A DNA stretch of 45,869 bases from a virus: IMG/VR virus record IMGVR_UViG_3300045988_123909; one strand, written 5' to 3'. Of the stretch, positions 1,375 to 38,084 are shown one piece after another. Within the stretch, counting starts at the first letter, position 1. Every line of letters starts with the position of its first letter. Below the pieces are notes generated by a model. That model searched no databases, was not told the DNA's origin, and worked only from the letters and a program-made list of their open reading frames with translations. Both the position numbers and the translations under genes were made by a program.

Positions 1375-3402
1375 CTAACGGCCACCAGGAACATTAGGCT
1401 GAACAGCCTTGTTAATGGTTCGCTTGCCACCTACGCGACGTTCGAGCTCACGGAACTTCTCGTCCTTGCCGAGAATAACCATGATGTAGTCGCCAGCCTG
1501 GCTAGGAGTCCATGCTGCGGTAATATTTGCAAACTTGCCACTATTGGCGATGGTAAGCTGGTGCTGGGCATCATCCTCACCAATCTCGATGCAGTAAGCT
1601 ACGCCAGCCTTCGCATTCGTGATATTCTCGATAGTGGTTGCTGTAGTAGCAGCATCTGTAATCTGCCAGAAGCCGTTTGCACCGTTGATCTCTGCACCAA
1701 TAACAGTTGCAGGGAGGTTGGTAAAGATCTGCTGGAACTCGTAATCGTTGGCATCCATGGCAGCCTTGCTGTCAAACTTGCGGCCAGTAAAGGCTGCGCC
1801 ACAACCTTCCTTCCAGGTACTCCAGGCACGAACCATCTCCATCTGTTCCTCCATCTTCACGGCGAACATCTCGCCAGGGAGGTTCTCTACGAACTGAATA
1901 TTGCCAGGGACGTCCATGAACATCCAGCAAGACTTGCCCTCGTATGGGAGCCACTTAATCTGAATGGTAGAGTCTGGGACGCGGTTCTTGTAGCCGTTAG
2001 GACCGGTAAAGTCCTGATCCTTGCCATAAGTCTCGCGGCAGTTAGCAAGCCACCAGTCAATATGGTTTTCATTGAGATAGAGAACATGGTTATCGATGGT
2101 CATGCCCTCAGAGAGGTGAGTCTTAACGTCGGTAATGAACTCCTTAACCGCATCCAGCATATTAGCTGAAGTATAAGTATTGTAGCTCTTATTAGCAAAT
2201 GGCTTAATGCTGTAATCGTGGATGTAACGGAGCAAGGTGTACCAGATACCTGTACCTGCATTGAGGTAGCTTGACGCCTGTCCTACCTCTGGCTTGACGT
2301 AAATACCACGCATACGACGCTGGTTCTGCTCGTCCTGAGCCTTCTTCAAGAGGTTGAGAAGGCAGAATTCAACCATAGACCACTTGATAGGATCGGAGCC
2401 CTCCTTATTGAGATAAGCGATATACTTACGCTCAAGTTCCTTCATTGGGCCAAACTTAACCTTAATCATGGCGTCATCAACATAGCCCATCTCGTTTTCG
2501 AGCTGCATGCCACCCTTGTAGATCTCACCTTCCTGGTAGCCCTGAGATACCTCATCGAAGAATGCGTTGAAGAGAATGTCACGATCCTGAACACCATAGC
2601 GAACAGGGAAAAACTCTGTAAGATTACGAAGTTCAAGGATTCGGGCAATAAGCGCATCCTGGCGAAGGATAACGAACTGGTCACCCAGTCCTGCATTATC
2701 CACGCCTGAGTAATTTGTGGCAAACTGGCCGGAAGCGAGAGCTTTGACGTTACCGAGCTCGTTGCGTACCTGGTGATACTTGTAGCGTTCCTGGAGCGAT
2801 CTCGCGAACGCCATCGCTTCGGTACGGAATGCCTTGCCGTCTGTCTCCTCGTTTGGCGCAGATGCTAAGGCTATCTCAGGATTAGCGACAATGCGGTTCC
2901 AGCGCTTTTTCATATCGAACATAGAATGCTCGATACCGAAAAGGTAGTTAGCGTTAGTTTTGAAACCGTTAATAGGAATAGAAGGAGCAGTAACATGAGC
3001 AGCAGGTTTGTCATCTGCTGTACTATTAGCCATCTTCTTCATATTCTCAGCGAGAATGTTGACAGCCGTAGAGAGTTTCTCGAACGATACATCCTGGCTG
3101 TTCTCGTTCTTCTTTCCTGCATCATCATCGTCGTCGCCACTTCCATCGCCGTCAGGATCATCATCCTTTGACTTGTTAGCCTTTGAGACAATGGCATAGA
3201 GCTCATTGATCTGCTTCTGATGCTCAGCCTGCTCGGCTGCACTATTCTCCTCAGCGAGGTCATCCATGAGAGTACTCTGGTACTCTTTCTGGTACGCCTC
3301 GCAAAGAGCCTTATACTCATCTGCGGTAAGGCTCTTATTCTCAAACTTCTTAGTAAAACCAAGACTCTCGAGAACCTTGTTTAACTTTGCTTTGAAATTC
3401 AT
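1375..3402 (-). CDS. Putative major capsid protein with N-terminal coiled-coil/poly-acidic (scaffold-like) extension
   Basis: 675-aa ORF immediately downstream of the prohead protease. The N-terminal ~130 aa are helical and very acidic (DDDPDGDGSGDDDDD). Call rests on size and position in the head module; no motif-level proof. Confidence 0.6.
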   Translation of the reverse strand: MNFKAKLNKVLESLGFTKKFENKSLTADEYKALCEAYQKEYQSTLMDDLAEENSAAEQAEHQKQINELYAIVSKANKSKDDDPDGDGSGDDDDDAGKKNENSQDVSFEKLSTAVNILAENMKKMANSTADDKPAAHVTAPSIPINGFKTNANYLFGIEHSMFDMKKRWNRIVANPEIALASAPNEETDGKAFRTEAMAFARSLQERYKYHQVRNELGNVKALASGQFATNYSGVDNAGLGDQFVILRQDALIARILELRNLTEFFPVRYGVQDRDILFNAFFDEVSQGYQEGEIYKGGMQLENEMGYVDDAMIKVKFGPMKELERKYIAYLNKEGSDPIKWSMVEFCLLNLLKKAQDEQNQRRMRGIYVKPEVGQASSYLNAGTGIWYTLLRYIHDYSIKPFANKSYNTYTSANMLDAVKEFITDVKTHLSEGMTIDNHVLYLNENHIDWWLANCRETYGKDQDFTGPNGYKNRVPDSTIQIKWLPYEGKSCWMFMDVPGNIQFVENLPGEMFAVKMEEQMEMVRAWSTWKEGCGAAFTGRKFDSKAAMDANDYEFQQIFTNLPATVIGAEINGANGFWQITDAATTATTIENITNAKAGVAYCIEIGEDDAQHQLTIANSGKFANITAAWTPSQAGDYIMVILGKDEKFRELERRVGGKRTINKAVQPNVPGGR

Positions 3403-3453: not shown

Positions 3454-4437
3454 TTAGCTAAATCCGTAAAGGCTCTGCGTCCCCATATAGGCCTCTCCCA
3501 GTTCTGCCACCTCTGCAATCGCCTCCAGTAAGGTGCGCTTACCGTCGATGAGACCGACTTCTTCGGCTGGAGCGGTATACAGGCTCTCTCCCTGAAGTAC
3601 CGGGGCGTCATCATCCAGTTCTGCCAGTTTGGAACGCTGAGATTTCACTTCTGCCAGGAACTGTTCATTCATCGGATCAAGAACATTCTTAATATAGTCT
3701 TCAGACTTACCGTCCTTCAGGTCCTCGAAAATCTTATTCTTCCGGCTAGAATTGGTAGCCTTCGCTACAATCTTCTTCAGCCCTAACTTCTCGAAGTATG
3801 GCTCAAAGTTCCAGAAGGAACACATAGTACCGATGCATCCAACGAAGTCATGATTCGTTGTTGCGTAAAGTTTCTGACCATGACAGCCGATGTAATAGGC
3901 TGCCGATGCGCAGTATTCTTCATAGATGGCAATGATAGGTTTCTTGGCGCTTCGCAGAGTCTCGCTCAATCGATCCATGTACCATGCCTCTCCTCCTGGA
4001 GAATTGATATGAAGGAGATGAGCGGATATCTGCGGGTTGTTCTCAGCGGCAATAATATCCTGTTCCAGCTGTTTGGAAGAGAAATACCAGTAGCTGTTTG
4101 CTGTCACAACTCCGAATACACGATGATATGCGATTGTACCATCATCCAGAGATGGCGAATTGTATTCATCCGTAAGCTGTACACTTTTCGTTTCATCTCT
4201 CTGCGATACCTTGGCAGATATCGCTAACAGCGCTTCATGCGTCTCGTACTGATAATATGTATGAGTCTTGAGATACTCCCGGATCTCAGGAATACTCATC
4301 GCCTGTTCGGCTTTTTTCTGTTCGAAGCTTACCACCGTGCCATTCAACGGAAAAGCAGCTACCATCAGCTGACGGTAGGCATCCTCAGTAATCCATAGAG
4401 GTAGAGTGGAAAGCAGAAGGGTCTGTATTTCGTCCAT
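3454..4437 (-). CDS. Prohead (head maturation) serine protease, ClpP/S49 (SppA-like) family
   Basis: Motifs INSPGGEAWY and ASAAYYIG are typical of S49/ClpP-fold peptidases. It sits directly upstream of the capsid gene. Start moved to the internal ATG at 4437 (MDEIQTLL), because the longer ORF overlaps the upstream gene. Confidence 0.75.
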   Translation of the reverse strand: MDEIQTLLLSTLPLWITEDAYRQLMVAAFPLNGTVVSFEQKKAEQAMSIPEIREYLKTHTYYQYETHEALLAISAKVSQRDETKSVQLTDEYNSPSLDDGTIAYHRVFGVVTANSYWYFSSKQLEQDIIAAENNPQISAHLLHINSPGGEAWYMDRLSETLRSAKKPIIAIYEEYCASAAYYIGCHGQKLYATTNHDFVGCIGTMCSFWNFEPYFEKLGLKKIVAKATNSSRKNKIFEDLKDGKSEDYIKNVLDPMNEQFLAEVKSQRSKLAELDDDAPVLQGESLYTAPAEEVGLIDGKRTLLEAIAEVAELGEAYMGTQSLYGFS

Positions 4438-4490
4438 CTTAATTAAGTTTTCTACAAAGGTACATATATATAATATGTATATAAAAGACC

Positions 4491-4841
4491 TTAAAGCAAT
4501 GGGTTCGCAAGCATTTTGCACTTAACGATAAGCTTCGCCTTATTCAGATGTCTGACGAGCTGAACCTTCGCCGGGATTGTTTCCGTACCTATCTCGTACG
4601 TACGTGCATCAGGAAGTCCAACACTTGCGAGCGTGACGATAGCGCTGCGAGGAACCTTTAGTTTGTTAAAAATGCTCTCGTCCGCTATATCGACAATAAA
4701 TGTCTTACTACAATCCCAGTACACACCTCCATTTTCCTCTGTCATTGAAGGCTCGAATGTGAACGGATCGGCGCTGAGGACTATGTTTCTTTCTGTGCCT
4801 CCGAGAGAGGAAATCATTAAAAGACAGGAAAACTCTTTCAT
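4491..4841 (-). CDS. Hypothetical protein (head module)
   Basis: ORF in the track. The ATG at 4841 (MKEFSCLL...) is preferred over the longer extension. Confidence 0.45.
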   Translation of the reverse strand: MKEFSCLLMISSLGGTERNIVLSADPFTFEPSMTEENGGVYWDCSKTFIVDIADESIFNKLKVPRSAIVTLASVGLPDARTYEIGTETIPAKVQLVRHLNKAKLIVKCKMLANPLL

Positions 4842-5465: not shown

Positions 5466-5812
5466 TCCTACCGTCCTACAATCCTACAAATTGCAGGCTT
5501 ACGAATGCAAAGATACTAAATTTCAGCGAGTTACACAAATTTAATCAAACATATTTTAGTCCTACACACTCATTTTTTCGCTTCCTACACGTCCTACAAT
5601 CCTACAAAATGGGATATTTTGTAGGATGAGATCTCCGAAAGCACCAAAATGCGAAAATTTCCTATTTCCTACAACGTCCTACAATCCTACAGCATTTCCT
5701 ACAAAAACACAAAAACACAAAAATACACATAACATACTGATAATAAGATAAATAGATAATAATAATAGTTTGAAAAGAAATGCATTTGTAGGATTGTAGG
5801 ATTGTAGGAAGG
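5466..5812. repeat. Iteron array: about 12 direct and 4 inverted copies of TCCTACA(A), often as TCCTACAATCCTACA, flanking an AT-rich tract; putative origin or regulator-binding region
   Basis: Direct copies at about 5467, 5474, 5482, 5560, 5583, 5592, 5600, 5667, 5677, 5685 and 5697. Inverted copies at 5616-5626 and 5787-5812. AT-rich aaaaacac repeats lie at 5700-5785. Confidence 0.7.
5508..5515 (-). promoter_or_regulatory. Bacteroidota-type -7 promoter box (TATCTTTG on minus strand) for the head operon
   Basis: Plus-strand caaagata is the reverse complement of TATCTTTG, about 65 nt upstream of the ATG at 5443. Confidence 0.5.
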
Positions 5813-5992: not shown

Positions 5993-6024
5993 TTTGGTTT
6001 TCTCGAATATTTTTTGTATCTTTG
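5993..6024 (+). promoter_or_regulatory. Canonical Bacteroidota promoter on the plus strand (TTTG - 20 nt - TATCTTTG), pointing antisense into the primase-helicase 3' end
   Basis: tttg at 5993-5996 and tatctttg at 6017-6024, with a 20-nt spacer. No convincing plus-strand ORF lies downstream. Confidence 0.4.
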
Positions 6025-11418: not shown

Positions 11419-11470
11419 CAAATATACAACATTTCAGTGATACCACCAAACATTTCACTGATTATTTTTG
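11419..11470. promoter_or_regulatory. Divergent promoter/operator region of the lysis-lysogeny switch
   Basis: Minus-strand promoter is TTTG (11450-11447) - 20 nt - TATATTTG (11426-11419). Plus-strand -7 box is TATTTTTG (11463-11470). Two 13-nt repeats 21 nt apart: acatttcagtgat (11428-11440) and acatttcactgat (11449-11461). Confidence 0.55.
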
Positions 11471-12293: not shown

Positions 12294-13475
12294 ATGACCA
12301 AAAAAAATTATGTTTGCAAAAACAAAGAGAACATCCAAGAGATTATAGGATGGACTACCCCAAAGTTGCATCAGGCCTCTGAATGCTATGTCGCCTTCAA
12401 AGCTTTCGATCCTTCTTATGGAAAATTGCGACTAAAGAAAATTATGCTCGGACATATCACGGGCAAACGAAATCAGAGGGTATACGGTGAAGCTCTCATT
12501 AAGCGCATTACCCAGAAGCTTCTTGAAGGATGGAATCCATGGATAGAGGAATCCAACCGAGAAGAGTATTCCTTATTCGCTGATGTTTGTGGCAAATACA
12601 GAGTGTATCTAGCGAAAATGGTAAAAGAAGGTGGACTGAAGCCTGGCACTCGGCGCAACTATGAGGGTAAATTAGACTTCCTGCAAAAGTGGTTAAACGG
12701 CGATGAACATATTACTTATATATATCAGTTCAATAAAACTCTAATCAGTAAGTTCCTAGATTATGTACTGGTCGGACGAAATAATGCTCTAAGAACAAGA
12801 AATAATTATATCGGCTGGCTAAAGTCCTTCTCCAGCTATCTTGTCGAACGAGGATATATCCAGAAAAATCCAACTGACGGCATTAATGTAACGACGAAAC
12901 TACAGCATAAAAATCGAGACGTTATACCTAACGATGTCCTGCGACAGCTTAAATCCTACCTTGAGAAAGAAAACAAACACTTCCTGCTTGCATGCTATTT
13001 TCTCCACTATCTGTTCGTTCGCCCTGGAGAAATGTGCAGTCTGCGAATCAAGGATGTATCAATAAAGAAAAAGACGCTCTCTCTAAGCGGGGCTAACACT
13101 AAAAATGGTCGAGACGCCGTGGTTACTATCCCGAACCACGTTATCGAGCTGATGAAAGAGTTAGGCATATTCTCAAGACCTCAGAATTATTATATTTTCG
13201 GTAATAATTTTCGCCCAGGATTAGAAGCACTGAAGGCTAGGACCTTCTCGCTATATTGGGACAAAAACGTCAGAAAAGCACTAAATCTGAATGCTTCGTA
13301 TAAGTTTTATAGTCTCAAAGATACTGGCATAACTAATATGATAAAATCTAAAACAGACCTGCTGTCTGTTAGAGATCAGGCAAGGCATTCATCTGTCGAT
13401 ATTACCAATATATATACGCCACAGGACTGCAAAGAAGCAAACAGCGCACTTATCGACTATGAAGGTGTATTTTGA
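12294..13475 (+). CDS. int: Tyrosine recombinase / phage integrase
   Basis: 393 aa. N-terminal SAM-like region. Catalytic-region motifs FVRPGEM (Arg), ARHSSVDIT (His/Arg) and NIYT (Tyr). Confidence 0.85.
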   Translation: MTKKNYVCKNKENIQEIIGWTTPKLHQASECYVAFKAFDPSYGKLRLKKIMLGHITGKRNQRVYGEALIKRITQKLLEGWNPWIEESNREEYSLFADVCGKYRVYLAKMVKEGGLKPGTRRNYEGKLDFLQKWLNGDEHITYIYQFNKTLISKFLDYVLVGRNNALRTRNNYIGWLKSFSSYLVERGYIQKNPTDGINVTTKLQHKNRDVIPNDVLRQLKSYLEKENKHFLLACYFLHYLFVRPGEMCSLRIKDVSIKKKTLSLSGANTKNGRDAVVTIPNHVIELMKELGIFSRPQNYYIFGNNFRPGLEALKARTFSLYWDKNVRKALNLNASYKFYSLKDTGITNMIKSKTDLLSVRDQARHSSVDITNIYTPQDCKEANSALIDYEGVF

Positions 13476-13518: not shown

Positions 13519-14838
13519 CTACAAATCACGCGGATAGCACTCTACATGTATGCGCCCGTCGATGATGTACATCTCAAGTTCATAACCTTCGTCGAGCATT
13601 TTTGAAATTTCATTTTCCGTTGGAATATCTTTTCTCTCTTCTGTTTTATGATTCAATATTTCGTTTGCCATATTCTTATATTTCATATCAATATTATATC
13701 TTTTCTTGAGCTGTACAGACCTATAATGACCTTTAATTACAAAGAATTTCCATGCTTCCTCGTCTAGCTCATCCTTTATGATTTGTCTCTTCATTCCGTA
13801 TTCGTTGTAATGGCCGAAGATTCCCAGGTATGAATTAACCGACTGAATGGCATGGTTGATGGCTTCAATATCTCCATTTCTGGCAGCATCATTAAGCTTA
13901 CGTACAGACTTCCTGAAGTTGTTAATGGTATTGTTAACCGAGTATATTCTGTCTCGCTTAATGATAGCTCCAACAAACCTGACACCTTTAGAGTAATGCT
14001 GGAAATAAAATTTCTTCTCATTCAGCCGCAGGCCTAAAGATGCAAGCGTCTCCCTTATCATCGGCATCAGGCGAAAGAGCGTCTCTTTCCGTCTCGCCAC
14101 CAGAACCATATCATCTACGTATCTGACATGATGCTTGCAGTAATAATCTATCTTCCAATCGAGTTTCGATAACAGGAAGTTAGCAAAGAGCTGAGCAAAG
14201 AGGTTGCCGATAGCTACGCCTCTGTCTTCTCCATTCGTGAACAGAGACTTCTCTTTAGGCAGAAACTCCCAGAGATAATCGGCGCTTCTCTTCTCGCAAT
14301 CCTTCTCGGGATGGTGCATAACCACCGTATTGCATAGCCAACGGAGATCTTCCCTGTCATCCCCATGGTAATTCCTTACGATGAAATCATCTACCATCTT
14401 AGCAAGAAGCGGCTTATAGATGCTCATAAAGAATCCCTTCAGATCGATCCCCATCACGTAGGCATCTTCTGTATAATTCTCGCTCACTTCCATAATATCC
14501 TCCTGAAGCTGCCTGATACCAGCCAGCTGGCCCTTGCCTTTCCGGCAGTTGTATGTACGGTCAGAAAACTGAGACTCAAACAGGGGTTCGAGTCTCAGTG
14601 CGATATAGTGGTGGATAATGCGGTCACGAAACTGACCAGCGAACACTTCGCGGTAGCGAGGGTATCTAACAACAAAGCAGATAGATTTGCCAATCTTATA
14701 TTGACGTGAATTGATTTCATCGAGCAACTGAACGAGGTTACTCATATAGTTCATTTCAAATTCCGTAGCGCCGACTGTTTTCCGCTTATGACGGCGGCAG
14801 TCGAAATATGCTTCTAAGAGAATGCTAAAATCTATCAT
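13519..14838 (-). CDS. DGR reverse transcriptase
   Basis: RT motifs GIDLKGFFMSI, IGNLFAQLFANF and YVDDMVLV (YxDD). Immediately downstream of the TR and avd. Confidence 0.9.
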   Translation of the reverse strand: MIDFSILLEAYFDCRRHKRKTVGATEFEMNYMSNLVQLLDEINSRQYKIGKSICFVVRYPRYREVFAGQFRDRIIHHYIALRLEPLFESQFSDRTYNCRKGKGQLAGIRQLQEDIMEVSENYTEDAYVMGIDLKGFFMSIYKPLLAKMVDDFIVRNYHGDDREDLRWLCNTVVMHHPEKDCEKRSADYLWEFLPKEKSLFTNGEDRGVAIGNLFAQLFANFLLSKLDWKIDYYCKHHVRYVDDMVLVARRKETLFRLMPMIRETLASLGLRLNEKKFYFQHYSKGVRFVGAIIKRDRIYSVNNTINNFRKSVRKLNDAARNGDIEAINHAIQSVNSYLGIFGHYNEYGMKRQIIKDELDEEAWKFFVIKGHYRSVQLKKRYNIDMKYKNMANEILNHKTEERKDIPTENEISKMLDEGYELEMYIIDGRIHVECYPRDL

Positions 14839-30029: not shown

Positions 30030-30037
30030 GCAAAGAT
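30030..30037 (-). promoter_or_regulatory. -7 promoter box (TATCTTTG on minus) with conserved downstream box CACCCGAGAATTAGTAACA
   Basis: Plus strand reads tgttactaattctcgggtgcaaagata. Confidence 0.5.
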
Positions 30038-30079
30038 ACACCACTTTTTCTGAAAAACCAAATTTATGCTCCAGAAAAA

Positions 30080-32128: not shown

Positions 32129-32156
32129 AGCCCCGATGCGCTGCTGCACCGGGGCT
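32129..32156 (-). terminator. Intrinsic terminator, type A hairpin (copy 1)
   Basis: agccccgatgc-gctgct-gcaccggggct, followed on the minus strand by TTTTC. The 39-nt block 32121-32159 is identical to 32915-32953. Confidence 0.7.
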
Positions 32157-32162
32157 GATATG

Positions 32163-32621
32163 TTATTGTTCGCCTTTCTGGTAAATTGGAGGAATCTTAT
32201 TCAATACGAATACCACAGCAAGACCGATAACGGTGGTTACGCCTATAATGCCGGCCACGGTATCATGACCATTCATGGCAAGGCTATAGGATATAAACCC
32301 GAAGAAGAGGATGAGTATGGTGGCAAGAACCTGCCCCAGCGTGCTCTGGAAAAACTTCTTCTTCACAATGGTCTTCTCCATGTCGATGCGATGATCTACC
32401 TGCTTCTCGGTCATCGACATGATACGGTCGGTAGAACCCTTCAGCGTCTGCTCGTATGCCTTGAAATCTTCGGGCGAAGGAAGAGGTCCGCTGTACGACC
32501 GCTCCTCAATGGCGAGCATCGTAGAAACAATCACCTTCCGCTTGTCTTCCGGAAGTTCCTCCAGGATATCGTTGATATTGGCAGGAATCATCTCTCCGCT
32601 ACGATCTTTCTTATCTGACAT
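32163..32621 (-). CDS. DUF2335-like membrane protein
   Basis: YSGPLPSPEDFKAYEQTLKGSTDRIMSMTEKQVDHR matches the DUF2335 signature as I remember it. Two C-terminal TM helices. Confidence 0.6.
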   Translation of the reverse strand: MSDKKDRSGEMIPANINDILEELPEDKRKVIVSTMLAIEERSYSGPLPSPEDFKAYEQTLKGSTDRIMSMTEKQVDHRIDMEKTIVKKKFFQSTLGQVLATILILFFGFISYSLAMNGHDTVAGIIGVTTVIGLAVVFVLNKIPPIYQKGEQ

Positions 32622-32796
32622 AAGCCGACTTCTGCTTTAAGTTCATAACCTTTCTCATATCATTACCGATGGCCTCCCAGTCCTTTCTCAGATCTGAAGC
32701 ATTATCGCCCTTCAGATAATCGTTGAACAGGCTGTTGTCTCCGCCCAGTCTTCCCAGGCTGATTAACCCTTCCAGTAAATTATTAAGTATTCTCAT
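32611..32796 (-). CDS. Hypothetical small protein (61 aa), overlapping the DUF2335-like gene start
   Basis: Start moved to the ATG at 32796 (MRILNNLL...), because the longer form would begin at or above the predicted transcription start. Confidence 0.45.
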   Translation of the reverse strand: MRILNNLLEGLISLGRLGGDNSLFNDYLKGDNASDLRKDWEAIGNDMRKVMNLKQKSAYVR

Positions 32797-32845
32797 ATCT
32801 TTCTTATTTTTGAGTGTCCACGTTCTGTTACTAATTCTCACGGTG

Positions 32846-32853
32846 CAAATATA
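32846..32853 (-). promoter_or_regulatory. -7 promoter box (TATATTTG on minus) with conserved downstream box CACCGTGAGAATTAGTAACA
   Basis: Plus strand reads tgttactaattctcacggtgcaaatata. Confidence 0.5.
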
Positions 32854-32922
32854 CTATTATTTTCTGAACAGAACAAACGAAAGCGGGTATTTAACACAAA
32901 AAACTTGAAAATGGGAATGAAA

Positions 32923-32950
32923 AGCCCCGATGCGCTGCTGCACCGGGGCT
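32923..32950 (-). terminator. Intrinsic terminator, type A hairpin (copy 2)
   Basis: Identical to 32129-32156. About 20 nt downstream of the stop of the 133-aa gene. Confidence 0.7.
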
Positions 32951-32969
32951 GATGTGTGAATAGATAACC

Positions 32970-33371
32970 CTATGCTAACTGCAAAGAGCTAATGCGTTGT
33001 CCAATCTCCTGGACGGCACGATTGAAAATATCTTTCTGCTCGGAATTGAGCGTATAAACATGACCACGAACCTCTGAGCCATTGAGACGCTGAGAGAGCC
33101 ATGCAGCGCTTTTACCGAAATATTTCTGTGCGATGTATCGAAGTGGAAGCAACTTGTAATCTGCCTCTGCAAGCTGCTCACGCAAAGTGGCAACCTCCAG
33201 CTTCAGGTTTGCGACTCTATCTACAACCACCTCACTAATATATTTCTTATCCTCCTCCGTAGCATTTGCGCTGAGATAGCGATGAATCTCGTCTCTGCGC
33301 TCTTTGCTCTTGGCATCCTGCTTACTAGCCAATGCCATATACTCTGCCATTAATTCTTTGATATTATCCAT
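32970..33371 (-). CDS. DUF5053-like protein with N-terminal coiled-coil extension (133 aa)
   Basis: C-terminal YFGKSAAWLSQRLNGSEVRGHVYTLNSEQKDIFNRAVQEIGQRI resembles the Bacteroidota DUF5053 pattern. Paralogue at 34747..34998. Confidence 0.6.
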   Translation of the reverse strand: MDNIKELMAEYMALASKQDAKSKERRDEIHRYLSANATEEDKKYISEVVVDRVANLKLEVATLREQLAEADYKLLPLRYIAQKYFGKSAAWLSQRLNGSEVRGHVYTLNSEQKDIFNRAVQEIGQRISSLQLA

Positions 33372-33398
33372 ATTCTTATATTTATATTGTTTAAAGAA

Positions 33399-33417
33399 CC
33401 TCCCCTCTTAGGGGAGG
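33399..33417 (-). promoter_or_regulatory. Perfect GC-rich hairpin (cctcccc-tctta-ggggagg) in the leader just upstream of the DUF5053-like gene
   Basis: A 7-8 bp stem about 28 nt 5' of the ATG at 33371. An analogous hairpin (ccctcc-acgaa-gggaggg) sits around 35022-35039 before the paralogue. Confidence 0.45.
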
Positions 33418-33422
33418 ACTTT

Positions 33423-33575
33423 TTAGTTTTTTCTTTGCTTGTAGAGCTTAGAAAGGTCTGCGAGTCTCAAATCAATCTGTCTCTCGTAATCGAAGACCAA
33501 GTCTTTCAGTTCGAGAAGAGCCTTGATTTCATCTTCCTTTCTTTTAATTTCTTGCTCTAACTCTTTTTGTGTCAT
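33423..33575 (-). CDS. Small coiled-coil protein (50 aa), below the ORF-track cutoff
   Basis: Hand translation: MTQKELEQEIKRKEDEIKALLELKDLVFDYERQIDLRLADLSKLYKQRKN. Lies between the promoter box at 33622-33629 and the hairpin. Confidence 0.4.
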   Translation of the reverse strand: MTQKELEQEIKRKEDEIKALLELKDLVFDYERQIDLRLADLSKLYKQRKN

Positions 33576-33621
33576 ACGCTCAAAATCTAATTGTTAAACA
33601 TCTAGTTATCTATTCACGATG

Positions 33622-33629
33622 CAAAGGTA
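33622..33629 (-). promoter_or_regulatory. -7 promoter box (TACCTTTG on minus)
   Basis: Plus strand reads cacgatgcaaaggta. Confidence 0.45.
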
Positions 33630-33724
33630 CATAAAATTCTTTTAACGACCAAATAAAACATAAACTTTCTTTTATGTTTAACTCATTTTTAACATCTTGA
33701 TACGGGAAATAAGCGGAAAAAGCG

Positions 33725-33732
33725 TATCTTTG
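33725..33732 (+). promoter_or_regulatory. -7 promoter box TATCTTTG for the 195-aa membrane protein gene (copy 1)
   Basis: Part of an approximately 75-bp block that is nearly identical to 35170-35245. Confidence 0.55.
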
Positions 33733-33772
33733 CAGAAAAGAAATGTTTCACCTATTAATATATATATAAGGT

Positions 33773-34360
33773 ATGGAAAAGATAATAAGTAATAAGGCGG
33801 CATCCTTTGCCAGCATGGAGCTTGCCAGATATGCGCTGGAACGGGCAGACAAGAGAGCGAGCAGCATACTGGAGCAGTATCGCAAGTCAACCGACCGCAA
33901 CTATACGCTGGCAGGTTTCATCATGACGGTGTTCATGGCACTCACGGCTTTCCTTGCCACGGAAAAGATGACCATGGTGCTGATAGCAATCACTCTCCCT
34001 TTATGGGTAGGAACCGGAACGGCGCTGCTTATCCTATTCTGTAAGGTGATGTGGGTACACGACTTTATGGCGCTGGGAGATGATGCTGCCACGATGCTGA
34101 GAGATGACCTGGTAGACGTGGCCATGAACAAAGGATTGCAGGATGACGATAAGGCAAACGATGAATACCTGCATCATCTCGTAATATCATCCATCAGGCG
34201 TACTCATAACGACACAGAGTATAACCGCGCCTGCCTTAACAGAAGGAACCGATACGTAAAACGAGCGATGACCGCAATCATCGCCTCGGTAATAGTGAGT
34301 GCAACGACTACGGTCATCCTGCTGGCCCTATCTTTTCTTGGGGTTATTCCCATGACTTGA
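33773..34360 (+). CDS. 3-TM membrane protein (195 aa), paralogue 1; possible SLATT-like / superinfection-exclusion-type effector
   Basis: N-terminal helix, two adjacent TMs, a ~70-aa soluble helical region, then a C-terminal TM. One of only four plus-strand genes. Confidence 0.65.
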   Translation: MEKIISNKAASFASMELARYALERADKRASSILEQYRKSTDRNYTLAGFIMTVFMALTAFLATEKMTMVLIAITLPLWVGTGTALLILFCKVMWVHDFMALGDDAATMLRDDLVDVAMNKGLQDDDKANDEYLHHLVISSIRRTHNDTEYNRACLNRRNRYVKRAMTAIIASVIVSATTTVILLALSFLGVIPMT

Positions 34361-34424
34361 AGTGTCCGGATAACTGTTCGGATCTTCTGGCCAACCATCC
34401 TCATTGTAGTTTGGTTTCATAATC

Positions 34425-34550
34425 AATAAAAAGGGCCCGTGCATCCGGAGAGCAGTCCTTCAGCACGAGCCACACAGCTGTATTTCTTTTCACTTGTTAT
34501 GTACAAACTCTGCTCAATCTGCACACAACCTTAGTTTAATGTCATCATTA
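34425..34550 (-). ncRNA. Candidate ~125-nt sRNA or leader: canonical promoter to intrinsic terminator (copy 1)
   Basis: Minus strand has TTTG (34588-34585) - 20 nt - TATCTTTG (34564-34557). No ORF longer than 5 codons. The hairpin 34471-34434 is followed by CTTTTTATT. The unit is convergent with the 195-aa gene. Confidence 0.35.
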
Positions 34551-34624
34551 CGCCTGCAAAGATAGCACTTTTCTCTGGAACCATCAAACATTTTACTGAT
34601 TATTTTCAGAAAACGGCAAGAAAA

Positions 34625-34651
34625 AGCCCCGATGCATCTCGCACCGGGGCT
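34625..34651 (-). terminator. Intrinsic terminator, type B hairpin (copy 1)
   Basis: agccccgatgcatctcgcaccggggct, followed on the minus strand by TTTTTCTT. Downstream of the 83-aa DUF5053-like gene. Confidence 0.65.
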
Positions 34652-34746
34652 GAGTTGAGTTATTGAACATGTTAGCTATGCTAACTGCAATGCGCCACAA
34701 GGCTATGGCGACTTCTGTCTTATGGGGAACGATGGCCCCAGCCTCA

Positions 34747-34998
34747 TTATATCCTGTCCGCAGCCGCACGCAAGCGATTGGAAACATCGCAAAGTGCCCC
34801 GCGGAGCATAACCTTCTCCTCTTCGGTAAAACCGCCTACACCACCATTTCCATCAATACCATCGAGCTTATGATAAAGCCATGATGCTGATTTCCCGAAA
34901 TAGGTATGTGCTATCTCGCGCCATGATACCGTCATCTGGATATCCTGTATGCGCTGCTTTACTGTGCTGTCCTTAGCCTGCTTCATTGTTACTTCCAT
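34747..34998 (-). CDS. DUF5053-like protein (83 aa), paralogue 2
   Basis: YFGKSASWLYHKLDGIDGNGGVGGFTEEEKVMLRGALCDVSNRLRAAADRI. Confidence 0.6.
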   Translation of the reverse strand: MEVTMKQAKDSTVKQRIQDIQMTVSWREIAHTYFGKSASWLYHKLDGIDGNGGVGGFTEEEKVMLRGALCDVSNRLRAAADRI

Positions 34999-35071
34999 AA
35001 TCTTATGCTTTTAGATGCCCTCCACGAAGGGAGGGATTTTGTTAATACTTGGTGTAATGCTCGGGTGGCCG

Positions 35072-35079
35072 CAAAGATA
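35072..35079 (-). promoter_or_regulatory. -7 promoter box (TATCTTTG on minus) for the 83-aa gene
   Basis: Plus strand reads ggccgcaaagata. The downstream box CGGCCACCCGAGCATTACAC partly matches the shared box. Confidence 0.45.
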
Positions 35080-35184
35080 CTACTATTTTTCGTAGTAGCC
35101 AAATATTTAATACGAAAAATCGTAGTATTAACTATGTTTAAGTTTTCTGTATGTGAAAAGGTAGAAAATGAGCGGGAAAAAGTG

Positions 35185-35192
35185 TATCTTTG
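35185..35192 (+). promoter_or_regulatory. -7 promoter box TATCTTTG for the 195-aa membrane protein gene (copy 2)
   Basis: Same conserved block as 33725-33732. Confidence 0.55.
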
Positions 35193-35230
35193 CAGAAAAG
35201 AAATGTTTCACCTATTAATATATATAAGGT

Positions 35231-35818
35231 ATGGAAAAGATAATAACCGGCAAGGTTCGCAAGAACTTGAACGAGCACACAGCCCGCATCATCCTGGAGC
35301 GCTCAGACAGATTGGCAAGCAGCACGCTTGAGCAGCTCCGCAAATCTACCGATCGCGCCTACACCATGACAGGGTTCCTGCTCACGGTGTTCATCGCCCT
35401 CACGGCATTCGTATTCTCCAGCCCGTCTTTATGGCAGCTCTCTACTGCTGTAGTTCTATGGTCAGGCATCTTTATTGCGCTATACATCATGGTAAACCAG
35501 ATTCTGTGGGTTCACCCTTTCAGGCATACAGGCAACGAGCCCAGGAACATGATACAGGAGGAGAACATCGACAGGCTTCTGAAGAATGGACATAACCAGG
35601 AAGAGATGAACGCCATATACTCCGTCAACACCCTGCTCGATGCCATCAGCTATAACCAGGAAATCATCGACCGCAACAGGAGTATTCTTGCCAACCGCTG
35701 CGACCATATAGAAAAAGCGATGACGGTGATCAAGTGTACTGTTATTGTCGCCACCATCATCACCGTCATCTCGTTTCTAGCCTCTGCTCTTGGGATGTAT
35801 CACGGTTCCGCCATTTGA
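35231..35818 (+). CDS. 3-TM membrane protein (195 aa), paralogue 2
   Basis: Same length and topology as 33773..34360. The first 60 aa are 36/60 identical by hand alignment; the rest is much more diverged, though a WVH motif is retained. Confidence 0.65.
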   Translation: MEKIITGKVRKNLNEHTARIILERSDRLASSTLEQLRKSTDRAYTMTGFLLTVFIALTAFVFSSPSLWQLSTAVVLWSGIFIALYIMVNQILWVHPFRHTGNEPRNMIQEENIDRLLKNGHNQEEMNAIYSVNTLLDAISYNQEIIDRNRSILANRCDHIEKAMTVIKCTVIVATIITVISFLASALGMYHGSAI

Positions 35819-35879
35819 GCGGTCGTCTCCACCTCCACGCTGAGGAATCCAGTCGTCATCGTCTGTTGGTTTCATAATC

Positions 35880-36005
35880 ATAAAAAAGGGCTCGTGCATC
35901 CGGAGAGCAGTCCTTCAGCACGAGCCACACAGCTGTATTTCTTTTCACTTGTTATGTACAAACTCTGCTCAATCTGCACACAACCTTAGTTCAATGTCAT
36001 CATTA
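35880..36005 (-). ncRNA. Candidate ~125-nt sRNA or leader (copy 2)
   Basis: TTTG (36043-36040) - 20 nt - TATCTTTG (36019-36012). Perfect 9-bp hairpin 35926-35918 / 35897-35889, followed by CTTTTTTAT on the minus strand. Confidence 0.35.
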
Positions 36006-36080
36006 CGCCTGCAAAGATAGTACTTTTCTCTGAAACCATCAAACATTTTGCTGATTATTTTCAGAAAACAGCAAGAAAAG

Positions 36081-36105
36081 GCCCCGATGCATCTCGCACC
36101 GGGGC
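36081..36105 (-). terminator. Intrinsic terminator, type B hairpin (copy 2); probably ends the lysis operon
   Basis: gccccgatgcatctcgcaccggggc, followed on the minus strand by CTTTTCTT. Confidence 0.6.
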
Positions 36106-36300
36106 TTCCTGATAATTTTGATAACTTTATAAACTTGGAAAACCGTACTCTACAACAAGAATGATAGATTTCCATATGAGAATGAGAACACACGCCTGTG
36201 CAATGTTATAAGATCATATTACTATAACTAATAATCATGAGTATAAAAAAGATACATCTAATATAAAATTCAGCCAAACTATACCTATAAACACTTAAAC

Positions 36301-37104
36301 CTATTTTCTAAACATAATAATCTTGGGATAAGAGAGCCGGGAGTGCGGGTTCTGACTTACCACCTCCATGCGCACACCCTTGGTCCCATAGCGAAAGAAG
36401 AGGAACCTCTTCGGCACACGATGAACAACCATCTGAAGGGTATCGCGACTCTCGATATGCACCTGCATGCTGTCGCCCTCAATTTCGCCCCGCAGGGTTA
36501 TCCATGGATCACTCCAGGAAACCGTCTGCGAGACGTCGGGCGGTCGGCAGGAACCGGAAAGAAGCCGACTGCATGTATCGTGAGGAACCGGCCGGATGGC
36601 TGCCCTCACGTCTACCTGGGTGGTGGTAGAGGTTGTAGCTGCCGCCATGATCCGGCTGTTCTTTATCTTGAGTTCCTTCCTGTTAACGGCAAGGAGAGAG
36701 TCCGGACTGCGTTTCAGATCAGACGTCTTCAACGTGATGGCTGGCACGGAAGCTCTTGGCCTGCCTGACTGCGTGCGGCCTATCTCTACCTTGCCGTTGT
36801 GAAGAAGGATATCCTGATTCTCTTTCGTGCGCTCCGTTTCGCCCCTGAGGTCGTGACACTCCTTGAATGCCACAACCAGGGCGAGCGGAATCAACACTAG
36901 AAAAATAACCTTAATAAAACCTATAAACCTATTCACAACAAAAATAACAACAAATAACAAAAAACACTTAAAACTTATACACACTTCCGCCGGATCGTCT
37001 TGATAATCGAGGTAATGGTGGTGAGGTACGTAGGATCTGTAGCGTACTTGCACCCTACCCCGTCGCATATCTTCTGGGCAAACTTGAACGGGTCCTTGCG
37101 GCAT
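36301..37104 (-). CDS. Membrane-anchored protein downstream of the endolysin (spanin-like lysis accessory candidate); start uncertain
   Basis: 267-codon open frame. The only upstream in-frame ATGs (37104, 37068) lie inside the endolysin 3' end in another frame; a GTG at 36936 is the alternative. Long hydrophobic stretch CFLLFVVIFVVNRFIGFIKVIFLVLIPLALVVAF, then a soluble domain. Confidence 0.4.
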   Translation of the reverse strand: MPQGPVQVCPEDMRRGRVQVRYRSYVPHHHYLDYQDDPAEVCISFKCFLLFVVIFVVNRFIGFIKVIFLVLIPLALVVAFKECHDLRGETERTKENQDILLHNGKVEIGRTQSGRPRASVPAITLKTSDLKRSPDSLLAVNRKELKIKNSRIMAAATTSTTTQVDVRAAIRPVPHDTCSRLLSGSCRPPDVSQTVSWSDPWITLRGEIEGDSMQVHIESRDTLQMVVHRVPKRFLFFRYGTKGVRMEVVSQNPHSRLSYPKIIMFRK

Positions 37105-37496
37105 GGCCAGGCATCCTTATAGCCCGGCTTCTGGAAGAGACGTTCATGTTCCTTCAGGCAGTCGCCTACAGAGTCGAAATCCTTGAAGGCACGCATCACG
37201 GTATAATACCAGAGATTTTTGCCTGCTACCTTGCACACGGATACGATACGGTCTGGCTCCTTGAACTTCTGTTTAGGAGTCTTGAAGTATTCGTGAGTCT
37301 TCACCATGACGATATCTCCGTCCCACTGGCTGCCCTTGGTAATACCGAAGAGGTTAGCCTTACCGATAACCCGCGAACCCCATCCTGTCTCAAGCATCGC
37401 CTGGGCAGTAACGAAGGCAGGATCTATTTCTGTTTTTGCCTCCACGGCCGCAGCATACACCTGACGGGCGAAGGCTAATTGAGTTTTACTTGCCAT
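36975..37496 (-). CDS. Endolysin, GH73 glucosaminidase (FlgJ-like) family
   Basis: Motifs AQAMLETGWGS, NLFGI and YATDPTY. Confidence 0.8.
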   Translation of the reverse strand: MASKTQLAFARQVYAAAVEAKTEIDPAFVTAQAMLETGWGSRVIGKANLFGITKGSQWDGDIVMVKTHEYFKTPKQKFKEPDRIVSVCKVAGKNLWYYTVMRAFKDFDSVGDCLKEHERLFQKPGYKDAWPCRKDPFKFAQKICDGVGCKYATDPTYLTTITSIIKTIRRKCV

Positions 37497-37525: not shown

Positions 37526-38017
37526 CTATGATGCATCATCGGGCGCATCTTTTTCCGAAAAGTTGATAGGCCCGCCGCCGATGTAATCTCCCTTGTCGTT
37601 AAAGTCCTTCATGCGCTTTACGAAGTTCTTCGGAAATATCGGATATATAGCCTGTATGTTCTCGATAATGGAGAATATCTCGCGTACCATCATGAACACG
37701 CAGATGTAAGTTCCTGTCCATTGCATCGCGCCGACAGTAGAGCCCTCTACGGTGGCATGACTTGCAAAATTACTCAGGATCATCAGGAAGATGTAGATTA
37801 CAATCTTCTTCGTGAACCTGGAGAAGAAGGATTCGCTAGACGCATCCTTGTGGATAAGATGCTTCCATACACCAAGGAAGGTATCGATAGAGATGGCTAT
37901 CGCTATCCACTTGGCAAACTCCCAGTCCTGATACACATACTGGAACCCTTCCGACACAGCCGTCAGAGGGAGCGAGGTGATTGCTATCATCGGTATATTT
38001 CGTTTATATTGTTTCAT
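37526..38017 (-). CDS. Holin (phage_holin_4_1-like)
   Basis: 163 aa with about 4 TM segments. The motif REIFSIIENI matches the E..SI.EN signature. Directly upstream of the endolysin. Confidence 0.75.
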   Translation of the reverse strand: MKQYKRNIPMIAITSLPLTAVSEGFQYVYQDWEFAKWIAIAISIDTFLGVWKHLIHKDASSESFFSRFTKKIVIYIFLMILSNFASHATVEGSTVGAMQWTGTYICVFMMVREIFSIIENIQAIYPIFPKNFVKRMKDFNDKGDYIGGGPINFSEKDAPDDAS

Positions 38018-38048: not shown

Positions 38049-38056
38049 CAAAATTA
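38049..38056 (-). promoter_or_regulatory. -7 promoter box (TAATTTTG on minus) for the lysis cassette
   Basis: Plus caaaatta, about 32 nt upstream of the holin ATG. Confidence 0.45.
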
Positions 38057-38084
38057 CACAAATATTCCGGAACCGCAAAGGACG

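Follow-up and report, generated by a model that had tools for sequence, protein, structure and literature searches.

Tandem cassettes in a Segatella phage set a three-helix membrane protein gene against a convergent small gene behind a structured leader RNA

Why should two neighbouring gene cassettes in one phage keep almost the same flanks around coding cores that have drifted far apart? The question is raised by IMG/VR record IMGVR_UViG_3300045988_123909, whose whole stretch of 45,869 nucleotides (nt) is called the window here. It is a temperate phage of Segatella/Prevotella, with genes for a tape-measure protein, holin, endolysin, integrase, primase and reverse transcriptase, and Segatella copri genomes are the source of related loci. 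Two plus-strand genes stand in tandem in it, each encoding a protein of 195 amino acids (aa) with three transmembrane (TM) helices. An earlier reading made from the letters alone (the sequence-only reading) had described them as the centres of two paralogous modules, each with a divergent DUF5053-like partner gene and with near-identical flanks around a core shaped by cassette exchange or diversifying selection. The modules, the contrast between flank and core and the cassette exchange are upheld by our analysis, whereas the DUF5053 partnership, the diversifying selection and the reading of the 3′ flank are not. What had been taken for the 3′ regulatory flank of the membrane gene actually belongs to a small convergent gene on the minus strand and comprises its promoter and leader RNA. 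The two genes and the blocks at their 5′ ends are as follows.

33773..34360, plus strand: membrane protein allele type 1 (T1), 195 aa, an open reading frame (ORF) with 43 close homologues
35231..35818, plus strand: membrane protein allele type 2 (T2), 195 aa, an ORF whose product is 37% identical to T1
33713..33791, plus strand: 5′ conserved block of cassette 1, near-identical to 35172-35249
35172..35249, plus strand: 5′ conserved block of cassette 2, with its -7 box at 35185-35192, from DNA alignment

Both genes are present in the ORF list, where they are two of only four plus-strand genes, as had been claimed. The modules are real and paralogous, as BLASTP aligns the two products end to end (37% identity over 191 aa, E 1e-39). 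The hand count of 36 identities in the first 60 residues is reproduced by the alignment, with about 26% identity in the remainder. At the DNA level the divergence is sharply non-uniform. The 5′ block (33710-33791 against 35169-35249, ~80 bp) is 90% identical, rising to 98-100% from 33715 onward, and the 3′ block (34411-34652 against 35866-36107, 242 bp) is 95.9% identical and free of gaps. Membrane-gene codons 7-60 are 65% identical in nucleotides between the modules, codons 61-195 are 52% identical and the spacer 3′ of the stop codon 48%, while DNA outside both blocks shows 39-51% identity. A recent uniform duplication, which the sequence-only reading had named as one of the findings that would undo its proposal, is therefore not the cause. 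In the 5′ block a Bacteroidota -7 box, TATCTTTG (33725-33732; 35185-35192), is followed by an AU-rich leader and by the opening six codons of the membrane gene (MEKIIS); the block is almost invariant ahead of both allele types in dozens of phages.

What, then, does the 3′ block contain? Read on the minus strand, it holds in order the terminator of the upstream gene, a full-consensus promoter, an RNA of ~125 nt and, towards the 3′ end of that RNA, a GC-rich hairpin with a U tract, after which a small ORF runs into the end of the membrane gene.

34625..34651, minus strand: intrinsic terminator of the upstream DUF5053 gene, from a terminator scan, repeat family D3
36081..36105, minus strand: terminator ending the lysis-side transcription unit, the fourth copy of the junction hairpin, from a terminator scan
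34557..34588, minus strand: full-consensus promoter of leader RNA 1, TTTG-N20-TATCTTTG, from a pattern scan
36012..36043, minus strand: full-consensus promoter of leader RNA 2, TTTG-N20-TATCTTTG, from a pattern scan
34426..34550, minus strand: leader RNA 1, ~125 nt, from its fold, with the 5′ end placed by the position of the promoter
35881..36005, minus strand: leader RNA 2, 96% identical to copy 1, from its fold, with hairpin 1 at 35951-35985 and hairpin 2 at 35889-35926
34328..34420, minus strand: small ORF 1, 30 aa by translation, MKPNYNEDGWPEDPNSYPDTSSHGNNPKKR, overlapping the last 11 codons of the T1 gene
35777..35875, minus strand: small ORF 2, 32 aa by translation, MKPTDDDDWIPQRGGGDDRSNGGTVIHPKSRG, overlapping the last 14 codons of the T2 gene

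In leader RNA 1 a variable hairpin (hairpin 1, 34496-34530) precedes a GC-rich one that does not vary (hairpin 2, 34434-34471), and a U tract follows at 34426-34433. Its minus-strand fold has a free energy of -43.3 kcal/mol (z -4.66, with 0/200 shuffles as stable) against -22.2 for the plus strand (z -0.29), and leader RNA 2 behaves alike (-42.2 kcal/mol and z -4.68 on the minus strand, z -1.38 on the plus). The fold is thus specific to the minus strand. A pattern search with hairpin 2 in viral contigs returned 89 stretches, and the -7 box lies at a fixed distance in all 64 of 64 distinct copies of the leader RNA. These fall into sequence classes A-F, which differ mainly in hairpin 1. In a covariation alignment of 22 representatives, 8/10 pairs of hairpin 1 carry pairing-preserving changes on both sides and 99.2% of cells are paired; none of 500 shuffles reaches the observed covariation, and sliding the partner strand by 1-3 columns lowers pairing to 27-49%. 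Moreover, many G-U pairs in hairpin 1 are compatible with the minus strand only. Hairpin 2 (GGCUCGUGCUGAAGGAnUGCyCUCyGGAyGCACGrGCC) is essentially invariant among copies that were themselves collected by matching its core; it is also kept in lineages where the remaining leader has diverged. Divergence of the leader RNA is 0.016, against a synonymous divergence of 0.19 in the adjoining gene, which makes the RNA roughly ten-fold more conserved. Rfam held no match to it in a search of the whole window at gathering score, and at E<=10 the interval 33600-36200 gave chance-level matches only.

Several other readings of this block were considered and rejected. Hairpin 2 is no terminator of the membrane gene, as it has no U tract on the plus strand and is conserved in phages that lack that gene. 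Plus-strand coding fails because the 31-codon frame is broken in MT835559.1 and the indels between classes are not multiples of three. Pairing of the leader RNA with the 5′ leader of the membrane mRNA was discarded, since that leader is almost invariant whatever the RNA class. A lambda-like late promoter with a Q antitermination leader is unlikely, for the element lies downstream of the lysis genes, is present twice and faces the membrane genes. A short upstream ORF of 3-24 codons, for example AUGAUGACAUUAAACUAA, is found near the 5′ end of every RNA class (34530-34548 and 35985-36003 on the minus strand of the window) and could be either chance or an attenuation element.

Does the small ORF behind this RNA encode anything? 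Its ATG lies 5-20 nt past the U tract in every leader context. Small ORFs 1 and 2 are acidic, contain Trp and converge on the membrane gene with a coding overlap of 33-42 nt. The frame is open in 51 of 51 distinct nucleotide variants. Across T1 cassettes, at the codons outside the membrane gene, synonymous polymorphism (pS) is 0.176 and nonsynonymous polymorphism (pN) 0.0099, a ratio of 0.056; the signal is absent from the other two frames, and all common polymorphisms are synonymous third-position changes. The membrane gene shows a matching trace, as its synonymous diversity is halved in its last 32 codons (~0.09-0.10 against 0.18-0.25 elsewhere), and 35801-35860 is the least variable part of the T2 cassette (pi 0.01). 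Because the ORF is open in all variants, has a low pN/pS and coincides with lowered synonymous diversity at the overlap, we conclude that it is under purifying coding selection. Micropeptide and membrane allele have, moreover, diverged together. A search of the small peptides against PHROGs assigned them to no family.

A survey of related prophages shows how the cassettes move. Allelic replacement between the conserved flanks, which the sequence-only reading had suggested looking for, is seen directly and includes empty sites. At 64 phage loci with full flanks, T1 stands alone in 29, T2 alone in 16 and both together in 11, in either order, and two copies of one type in 0; tandem copies are always one T1 and one T2 (11/11). 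Leader RNA classes A/B/C accompany T1 in 29/7/1 cases and T2 in 21/8/1, and for class A the distance between T1 and T2 cassettes equals that within a type (0.016). RNA classes therefore assort independently of the membrane allele type. Some N-termini are recombinant, one example being MEKIISNK running into VRKNL. In L100, L117, L024 (~4347-4606) and L083 (~4154-4254) the cassette is empty: the membrane-gene promoter and the opening four codons abut either the terminator or the beginning of the 3′ block, and exactly the coding core is gone. Related phages that have lost the RNA unit also occur. Integron-like or site-specific capture was rejected: there is no evidence for it, the mosaic boundaries are the edges of the conserved functional blocks, and the recombinant N-termini fit homologous recombination.

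These data bear on a purely historical account, under which gene conversion acted on the flanks after a duplication, these flanks do nothing except as promoter and terminator, and both the RNA fold and the small ORF are products of chance. Phage tandem repeats do undergo gene conversion, and the flanks are undifferentiated between T1 and T2 cassettes; however, the same flanks are conserved in dozens of single-copy phages, and hairpin 2 is kept in lineages in which everything else has diverged. The excess of synonymous divergence over RNA divergence given above speaks against it too, and the compensatory substitutions between RNA classes, together with the codon-position bias (pN/pS) of the small ORF, already contradict it. 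We regard this account as very improbable. Because the flanks are far more conserved than synonymous sites and the RNA classes assort independently, flank identity is best explained by functional constraint together with recombination that homogenises the shared control regions; it is neither the result of a recent uniform duplication nor neutral.

Nor is the core diversifying in the sense first proposed. Within-type pN/pS of the membrane gene is 0.19 for T1 and 0.17 for T2 (pS ~0.19), values of purifying selection in both of these old allelic lineages. Between the two, at 37% amino-acid identity, synonymous change has reached saturation.

What kind of protein do they encode? An exhaustive profile search gave a family of 98 representatives at 50% identity, all of ~175-200 aa, and T1 and T2 each represent >1,400 sequences in public assemblies, without annotation. 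The topology proposed by eye is borne out by an AlphaFold (AF2) model (pLDDT 78.6), in which an N-terminal cytoplasmic helix runs on into TM1 (residues 15-61); TM2 spans 68-92, and beyond a soluble stretch of helices a long helix (125-188) has TM3 at its end. The window proteins matched nothing above threshold in Pfam, PHROGs, NCBIfam or PADLOC and nothing in a PDB sequence search, and a Foldseek search with the model against PDB and BFVD returned nothing at E<0.1. The sequence-only reading had been reminded of SLATT-type effectors. None of 63 family members matches Pfam SLATT_1-6 at E<=0.01. Sub-threshold matches to NCBIfam SLATT_1 occur in 5/63 relatives (best E 1.6e-4), with the window proteins unmatched. 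PADLOC PycTM profiles (PDLC02363-5) match the window proteins at E 0.029 and 0.082 and 6/63 relatives weakly (best E 7.5e-4), and one relative, P0226, has a weak precomputed match to Pfam PycTM (PF18967); such PycTM matches are weak, and hydrophobic-segment bias is a possible source of them. Set against the SLATT core of two TM helices with flanking cytoplasmic helices, the model has the N-terminal helix, the TM1-TM2 hairpin and the helical region, and in addition a third TM helix at the C-terminus. Signalling enzymes (cyclase, SMODS or other) were found neither in the window nor in the related loci that were fetched, where the neighbours of the membrane gene are DUF5053, HicAB, DUF2335, lysis genes or a repressor. 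The similarity to SLATT and PycTM is sub-threshold and is offered as a lead for the membrane protein, not as a classification. Two automatic names were set aside, as they are mutually inconsistent and unsupported: VIT1/CCC1 transporter, one source's name for T2, for which there is no Pfam VIT1 match in the 63 members and no PDB sequence match, and 'sterol desaturase', another source's name for T1.

The position of the genes, immediately downstream of those for a holin, an endolysin and a DUF6549 protein, and their three TM helices, a number shared with class I holins, might suggest a lysis system, with the membrane proteins acting as holin, antiholin or in lysis timing. The membrane genes, however, have a promoter of their own and are read from the other strand, and terminators stand between them and the lysis genes. 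They are absent, single or double among otherwise collinear phages, and elsewhere they sit beside a repressor gene or after a terminase gene; moreover, neither Pfam nor PHROGs gave a match to a holin family. A lysis function is therefore highly unlikely.

In every divergent lineage examined for one (L046, L056/L068, L174, L175, L177, L178, L180, L181, L182, L184, L185 and L186), a convergent ORF of 26-46 codons lies at the membrane-gene stop or spans it, a recurrence counted in membrane-family lineages alone. In L182 this ORF lies just downstream of the stop. It follows the same leader RNA in L046, L056 and L068 and a different, three-way-junction RNA in L177 (z -4.7) and L175 (z -7.0), whilst in L178, L181 and L174 it lies directly downstream of an S24- or helix-turn-helix (HTH)-type repressor gene and had already been called by independent gene callers. 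In several of the peptides Trp comes after an acidic run (NEDGW, DDDDW, DDDEW, DDEDW, EKEEW, EDEEW); others are Pro/Lys-rich. The pairing of convergent small ORF and membrane gene appears, from these comparisons, to be older than the phage group of the window. The three-way-junction RNA (L177:5625-5750 and L175:855-985, both minus strand) faces distant homologues of the membrane gene, has the conserved sequence CCGUAG...AAUCGGGUUAAGG...ACCUUUGGGC and shows compensatory changes in its basal stem; a Pro/Lys-rich small ORF comes after it, and a search of this RNA against Rfam gave no match.

The promoter and leader RNA are not confined to this pairing: 16/85 distinct copies have no membrane gene of the family nearby, and unrelated cargo follows some of them. 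In L147 (2850-4061, plus strand) promoter, leader RNA and hairpin 2 stand before a gene for a 338-aa protein whose N-terminal domain matches the PADLOC candidate PDC-S02 (E 2e-14), and an ORF for a 63-aa TM protein convergently overlaps the 3′ end of that gene. In L096 the leader precedes an 80-aa ORF (1640-1882, plus strand) that takes the place of the small ORF, with the same acidic start, MRKIIGYDDDEW, and a C-terminal TM helix; a 68-aa single-TM ORF (1859-2065, minus strand) is convergent with it and overlaps it, a miniature of the same layout.

Such identical leaders before unrelated genes are what would be expected if promoter, leader RNA and hairpin 2 were a generic portable module for expression or insulation (a conditional terminator or attenuator), with the small ORF as minimal cargo and the overlap as incidental packing of two morons. 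The distance of 5-20 nt between U tract and ATG, kept whatever the context, agrees with this, as do the intact membrane genes that exist without the minus-strand unit and the failure of the RNA class to covary with the 5′ leader of the membrane gene. Yet distant homologues in other upstream contexts, behind a repressor gene of the S24 or HTH type or behind the three-way-junction RNA, still have the convergent small ORF, and neither the divergence of micropeptide in step with membrane allele nor the lowered synonymous rate at the 3′ end of the membrane gene is what incidental packing would leave. On balance we think this reading rather unlikely.

Instead, we give an even chance to a reading in which each module is a portable prophage cassette of two convergent transcription units that overlap at their 3′ ends. 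The anatomy of the cassettes, the RNA structure, the coding status of the ORF, the recombination and the conservation are observed; the mechanism built on them is conditional. Unit A, on the plus strand, would use a Bacteroidota promoter and an AU-rich leader to drive the 195-aa three-TM protein of lineage T1 or T2. Unit B, on the minus strand, would drive the leader RNA and then the micropeptide ORF from the consensus promoter just past the terminator of the previous gene. The flanks also double as recombination homology, by which membrane alleles, RNA classes and neighbour cassettes are swapped independently. In a lysogen the membrane protein would be made from its own promoter, and we infer that it would probably serve as an exclusion or abortive-infection-type moron product at the membrane, that is, in defence. 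T1 and T2 may have different specificities, which is suggested because the tandems are strictly heterotypic. Unit B would counter-regulate the membrane protein: its promoter would be strong and most transcripts would stop at hairpin 2, while those that read through would be antisense to the 3′ end of the membrane mRNA and would encode the micropeptide. The latter could be the cognate partner of the membrane allele and may bind the cytoplasmic face of the membrane protein.

How tight would such a bond be? The convergent promoters with an obligatory 3′ overlap might be taken as those of a toxin-antitoxin-like or abortive-infection pair, in which a SLATT/PycTM-like membrane-disrupting effector is held in check by the antisense RNA and/or by the acidic micropeptide as antidote until infection relieves the inhibition. 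The N-terminal helix with its two-TM hairpin has the right architecture, and the sub-threshold matches to SLATT_1 (5/63) and PycTM (6/63), with that of P0226, point the same way, but no member reaches a curated threshold, Pfam SLATT is not matched and there are no structural neighbours in PDB or BFVD. A HicAB pair occupies the neighbouring slot in sibling phages; there is, however, no cyclase or other signal generator nearby, and a protein of 195 aa with a third TM helix is far from the <60 aa of type I toxins. Moreover, the membrane gene is intact in L031, L045 and L079, although these phages have lost the promoter and the leader RNA along with the beginning of the small ORF. Because these three phages keep the membrane gene without it, unit B is dispensable and a strict toxin-antitoxin relation is disfavoured. 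We consider a toxin-antidote pair improbable, and modulation by unit B likelier than a strict relation of that kind.

The two-unit cassette reading has its own difficulties, and the same three phages are one of them. Where transcription starts, that it stops at hairpin 2 and that the small ORF is translated are predictions from the sequence. The promoter and leader RNA also precede unrelated cargo, the 338-aa PDC-S02-like protein and the 80-aa TM protein, and the leader RNA may simply be a general expression leader or conditional-terminator module. The membrane protein has no informative homologue, and its suggested role in defence or exclusion draws on context; the small peptides are of low complexity and differ greatly between lineages (acidic with Trp against Pro/Lys-rich). 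With these points in view, we put forward only tentatively the broader proposal that the three-TM protein and the convergent micropeptide might form an undescribed two-component defence, exclusion or addiction module conserved across Bacteroidota prophages. Specificity would lie in matched alleles of protein and peptide, convergent transcription across a conditional terminator would control how much is made, and in the present cassettes the pair would come with a riboregulatory leader RNA of its own. None of the libraries searched has a description of the membrane family, the leader RNA or the micropeptide.

The genes that the sequence-only reading had made partners of the membrane genes lie upstream of them on the minus strand. 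Both are indeed DUF5053 proteins, above the cut-off of Pfam PF16476 (26.6 bits), with 63.8 bits (E 1e-17) for 32970-33371 and 104 bits (E 3e-30) for 34747-34998.

34747..34998, minus strand: DUF5053 protein, 83 aa, with its own promoter at 35072-35103 (Pfam PF16476, E 3e-30)
32970..33575, minus strand: unit of a 50-aa coiled-coil-like ORF (33423-33575) and the 133-aa DUF5053-like gene (32970-33371), with promoter 33622-33653 and terminator 32923-32950

A constant partnership was not found. In a census of 87 distinct cassettes, 32 have the 83-aa DUF5053 gene as divergent neighbour, 23 the 50-aa ORF that goes with the 133-aa DUF5053 type, 20 HicA/HicB and 5 the 133-aa DUF5053 gene, with others in the rest; both membrane allele types are found with each of these neighbour types. 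The 83-aa DUF5053 gene is a neighbouring cassette and not a fixed partner. In L001:4183-4875 (MT835559.1) the DUF5053 slot is held by a HicA/HicB-like pair, so identified from the sequences only and without a match in PADLOC, and at this site sibling phages have either HicAB or a candidate defence gene resembling PDC-S02. GC-rich hairpins at 33399-33417 and 35018-35035, 20-30 nt upstream of the DUF5053 start codons, score as plus-strand terminators; they could end membrane transcripts running antisense through DUF5053 or could be regulatory hairpins of the 5′-untranslated region. Literature on DUF5053, on S. copri prophages and on SLATT in prophages yielded nothing specific.

Seen as a whole, the island lies directly downstream of the lysis genes (holin 37526-38017, endolysin 36975-37496, DUF6549 36301-37104) and is a series of self-contained promoter-gene-terminator units, in keeping with the moron island first proposed. 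Promoters and terminators flank each unit, and copy number (0/1/2) and order differ among related phages. The junction hairpin, a terminator of repeat family D3 with the sequence AGCCCCGGTGC...GCATCGGGGCT and a U tract, occurs on the minus strand in four near-same copies (32129-32156, 32923-32950, 34625-34651 and 36081-36105, by terminator scan), each followed by a similar promoter-proximal sequence, TTTTCTGAAAATAAT. These hairpins are the points at which cassettes are reordered in related phages, and MT835559.1 has a different cassette order. Another moron-like unit (32163-32841, minus strand) encodes a 76-aa protein and a DUF2335 membrane protein, with a promoter at 32846-32877 and its own terminator; the latter protein belongs to phrog_3996, of the category 'moron, auxiliary metabolic gene and host takeover'. 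A pattern scan for the full Bacteroidota consensus, TTTG-N18-21-TAnnTTTG, found 15 sites in the window against 0.43 expected, 6 of them within the 4 kb of the island (32.0-36.1 kb) and others, for example, at 5508-5539, 5993-6024, 11419-11450, 30031-30062 and 38049-38079. Together they mark out where the transcription units of this phage probably lie. A tRNA search of the window found none. Next to the integrase gene (12294-13475, plus strand), a 439-aa ORF (13519-14838, minus strand) matches the reverse-transcriptase family phrog_1423 (E 3e-75) and may, by analogy with Hankyphage-like Bacteroidota phages, belong to a diversity-generating retroelement.

Segatella (Prevotella) copri is among the most abundant human gut bacteria, and the expression of its prophages is almost unknown. 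In this locus an apparent conserved 3′ flank resolves into three unannotated elements: a consensus promoter, a covariation-supported RNA absent from Rfam and a micropeptide gene under selection. The cassettes are a testable candidate for a new prophage membrane system and for a new Bacteroidota riboregulator. They also offer a worked example of functional control regions serving as recombination handles during cassette exchange in a defence hotspot.

How, lastly, do these cassettes compare with known systems? Phage morons are independent promoter-gene-terminator units in prophages (PMC3594210). The cassettes resemble them in having their own consensus promoters and terminators between conserved phage genes; close relatives, moreover, may carry them, lack them or have them in another order, with the junction sequences conserved. 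Unlike morons, they consist of a convergent pair with a 3′ overlap, a structured leader RNA and two allelic lineages under the same control regions.

Effectors of the SLATT and PycTM types in CBASS and Pycsar share the N-terminal helix, the two-TM hairpin and further helices with the membrane protein, as well as the weak sub-threshold profile similarity. Here, by contrast, there is an extra C-terminal TM helix, no adjacent cyclase or SMODS gene, a micropeptide gene as the conserved partner and no score at a curated cut-off.

Type I toxin-antitoxin loci with convergent antisense RNAs that overlap at the 3′ end include txpA/RatA and bsrG/SR4 of Bacillus subtilis. In the same way, the membrane gene in this prophage locus faces a structured convergent RNA with a strong predicted promoter, and the read-through RNA would have to pair with the 3′ end of the membrane mRNA if the transcript ends are as predicted. 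The likeness stops at the protein, which with 195 aa and three TM helices is not a small hydrophobic toxin of <60 aa. Moreover, the convergent unit here encodes a conserved micropeptide, the main body of its RNA lies outside the membrane gene, and some phages dispense with the unit.

Prophages also carry membrane proteins for superinfection exclusion, and P22 SieA, lambda RexB and T4 Imm are the familiar cases of such proteins. T1 and T2 are similarly small multi-pass proteins, presumably of the inner membrane, predicted to be transcribed apart from the lytic operons and sometimes beside a repressor (L178), and two heterotypic copies would fit distinct specificities. In sequence and fold, however, searches of Pfam, PHROG, PDB and BFVD detected no similarity to exclusion proteins.

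Lastly, small RNAs with a dual function also encode peptides, as in SR1/SR1P, RNAIII/hld and SgrS/SgrT. Unit B differs from these in that its ORF lies downstream of the terminator-like hairpin, and hence would need read-through. It resembles them in that one transcript would carry both a structured RNA part (~125 nt) and a conserved ORF (~30 codons), each apparently under purifying selection.

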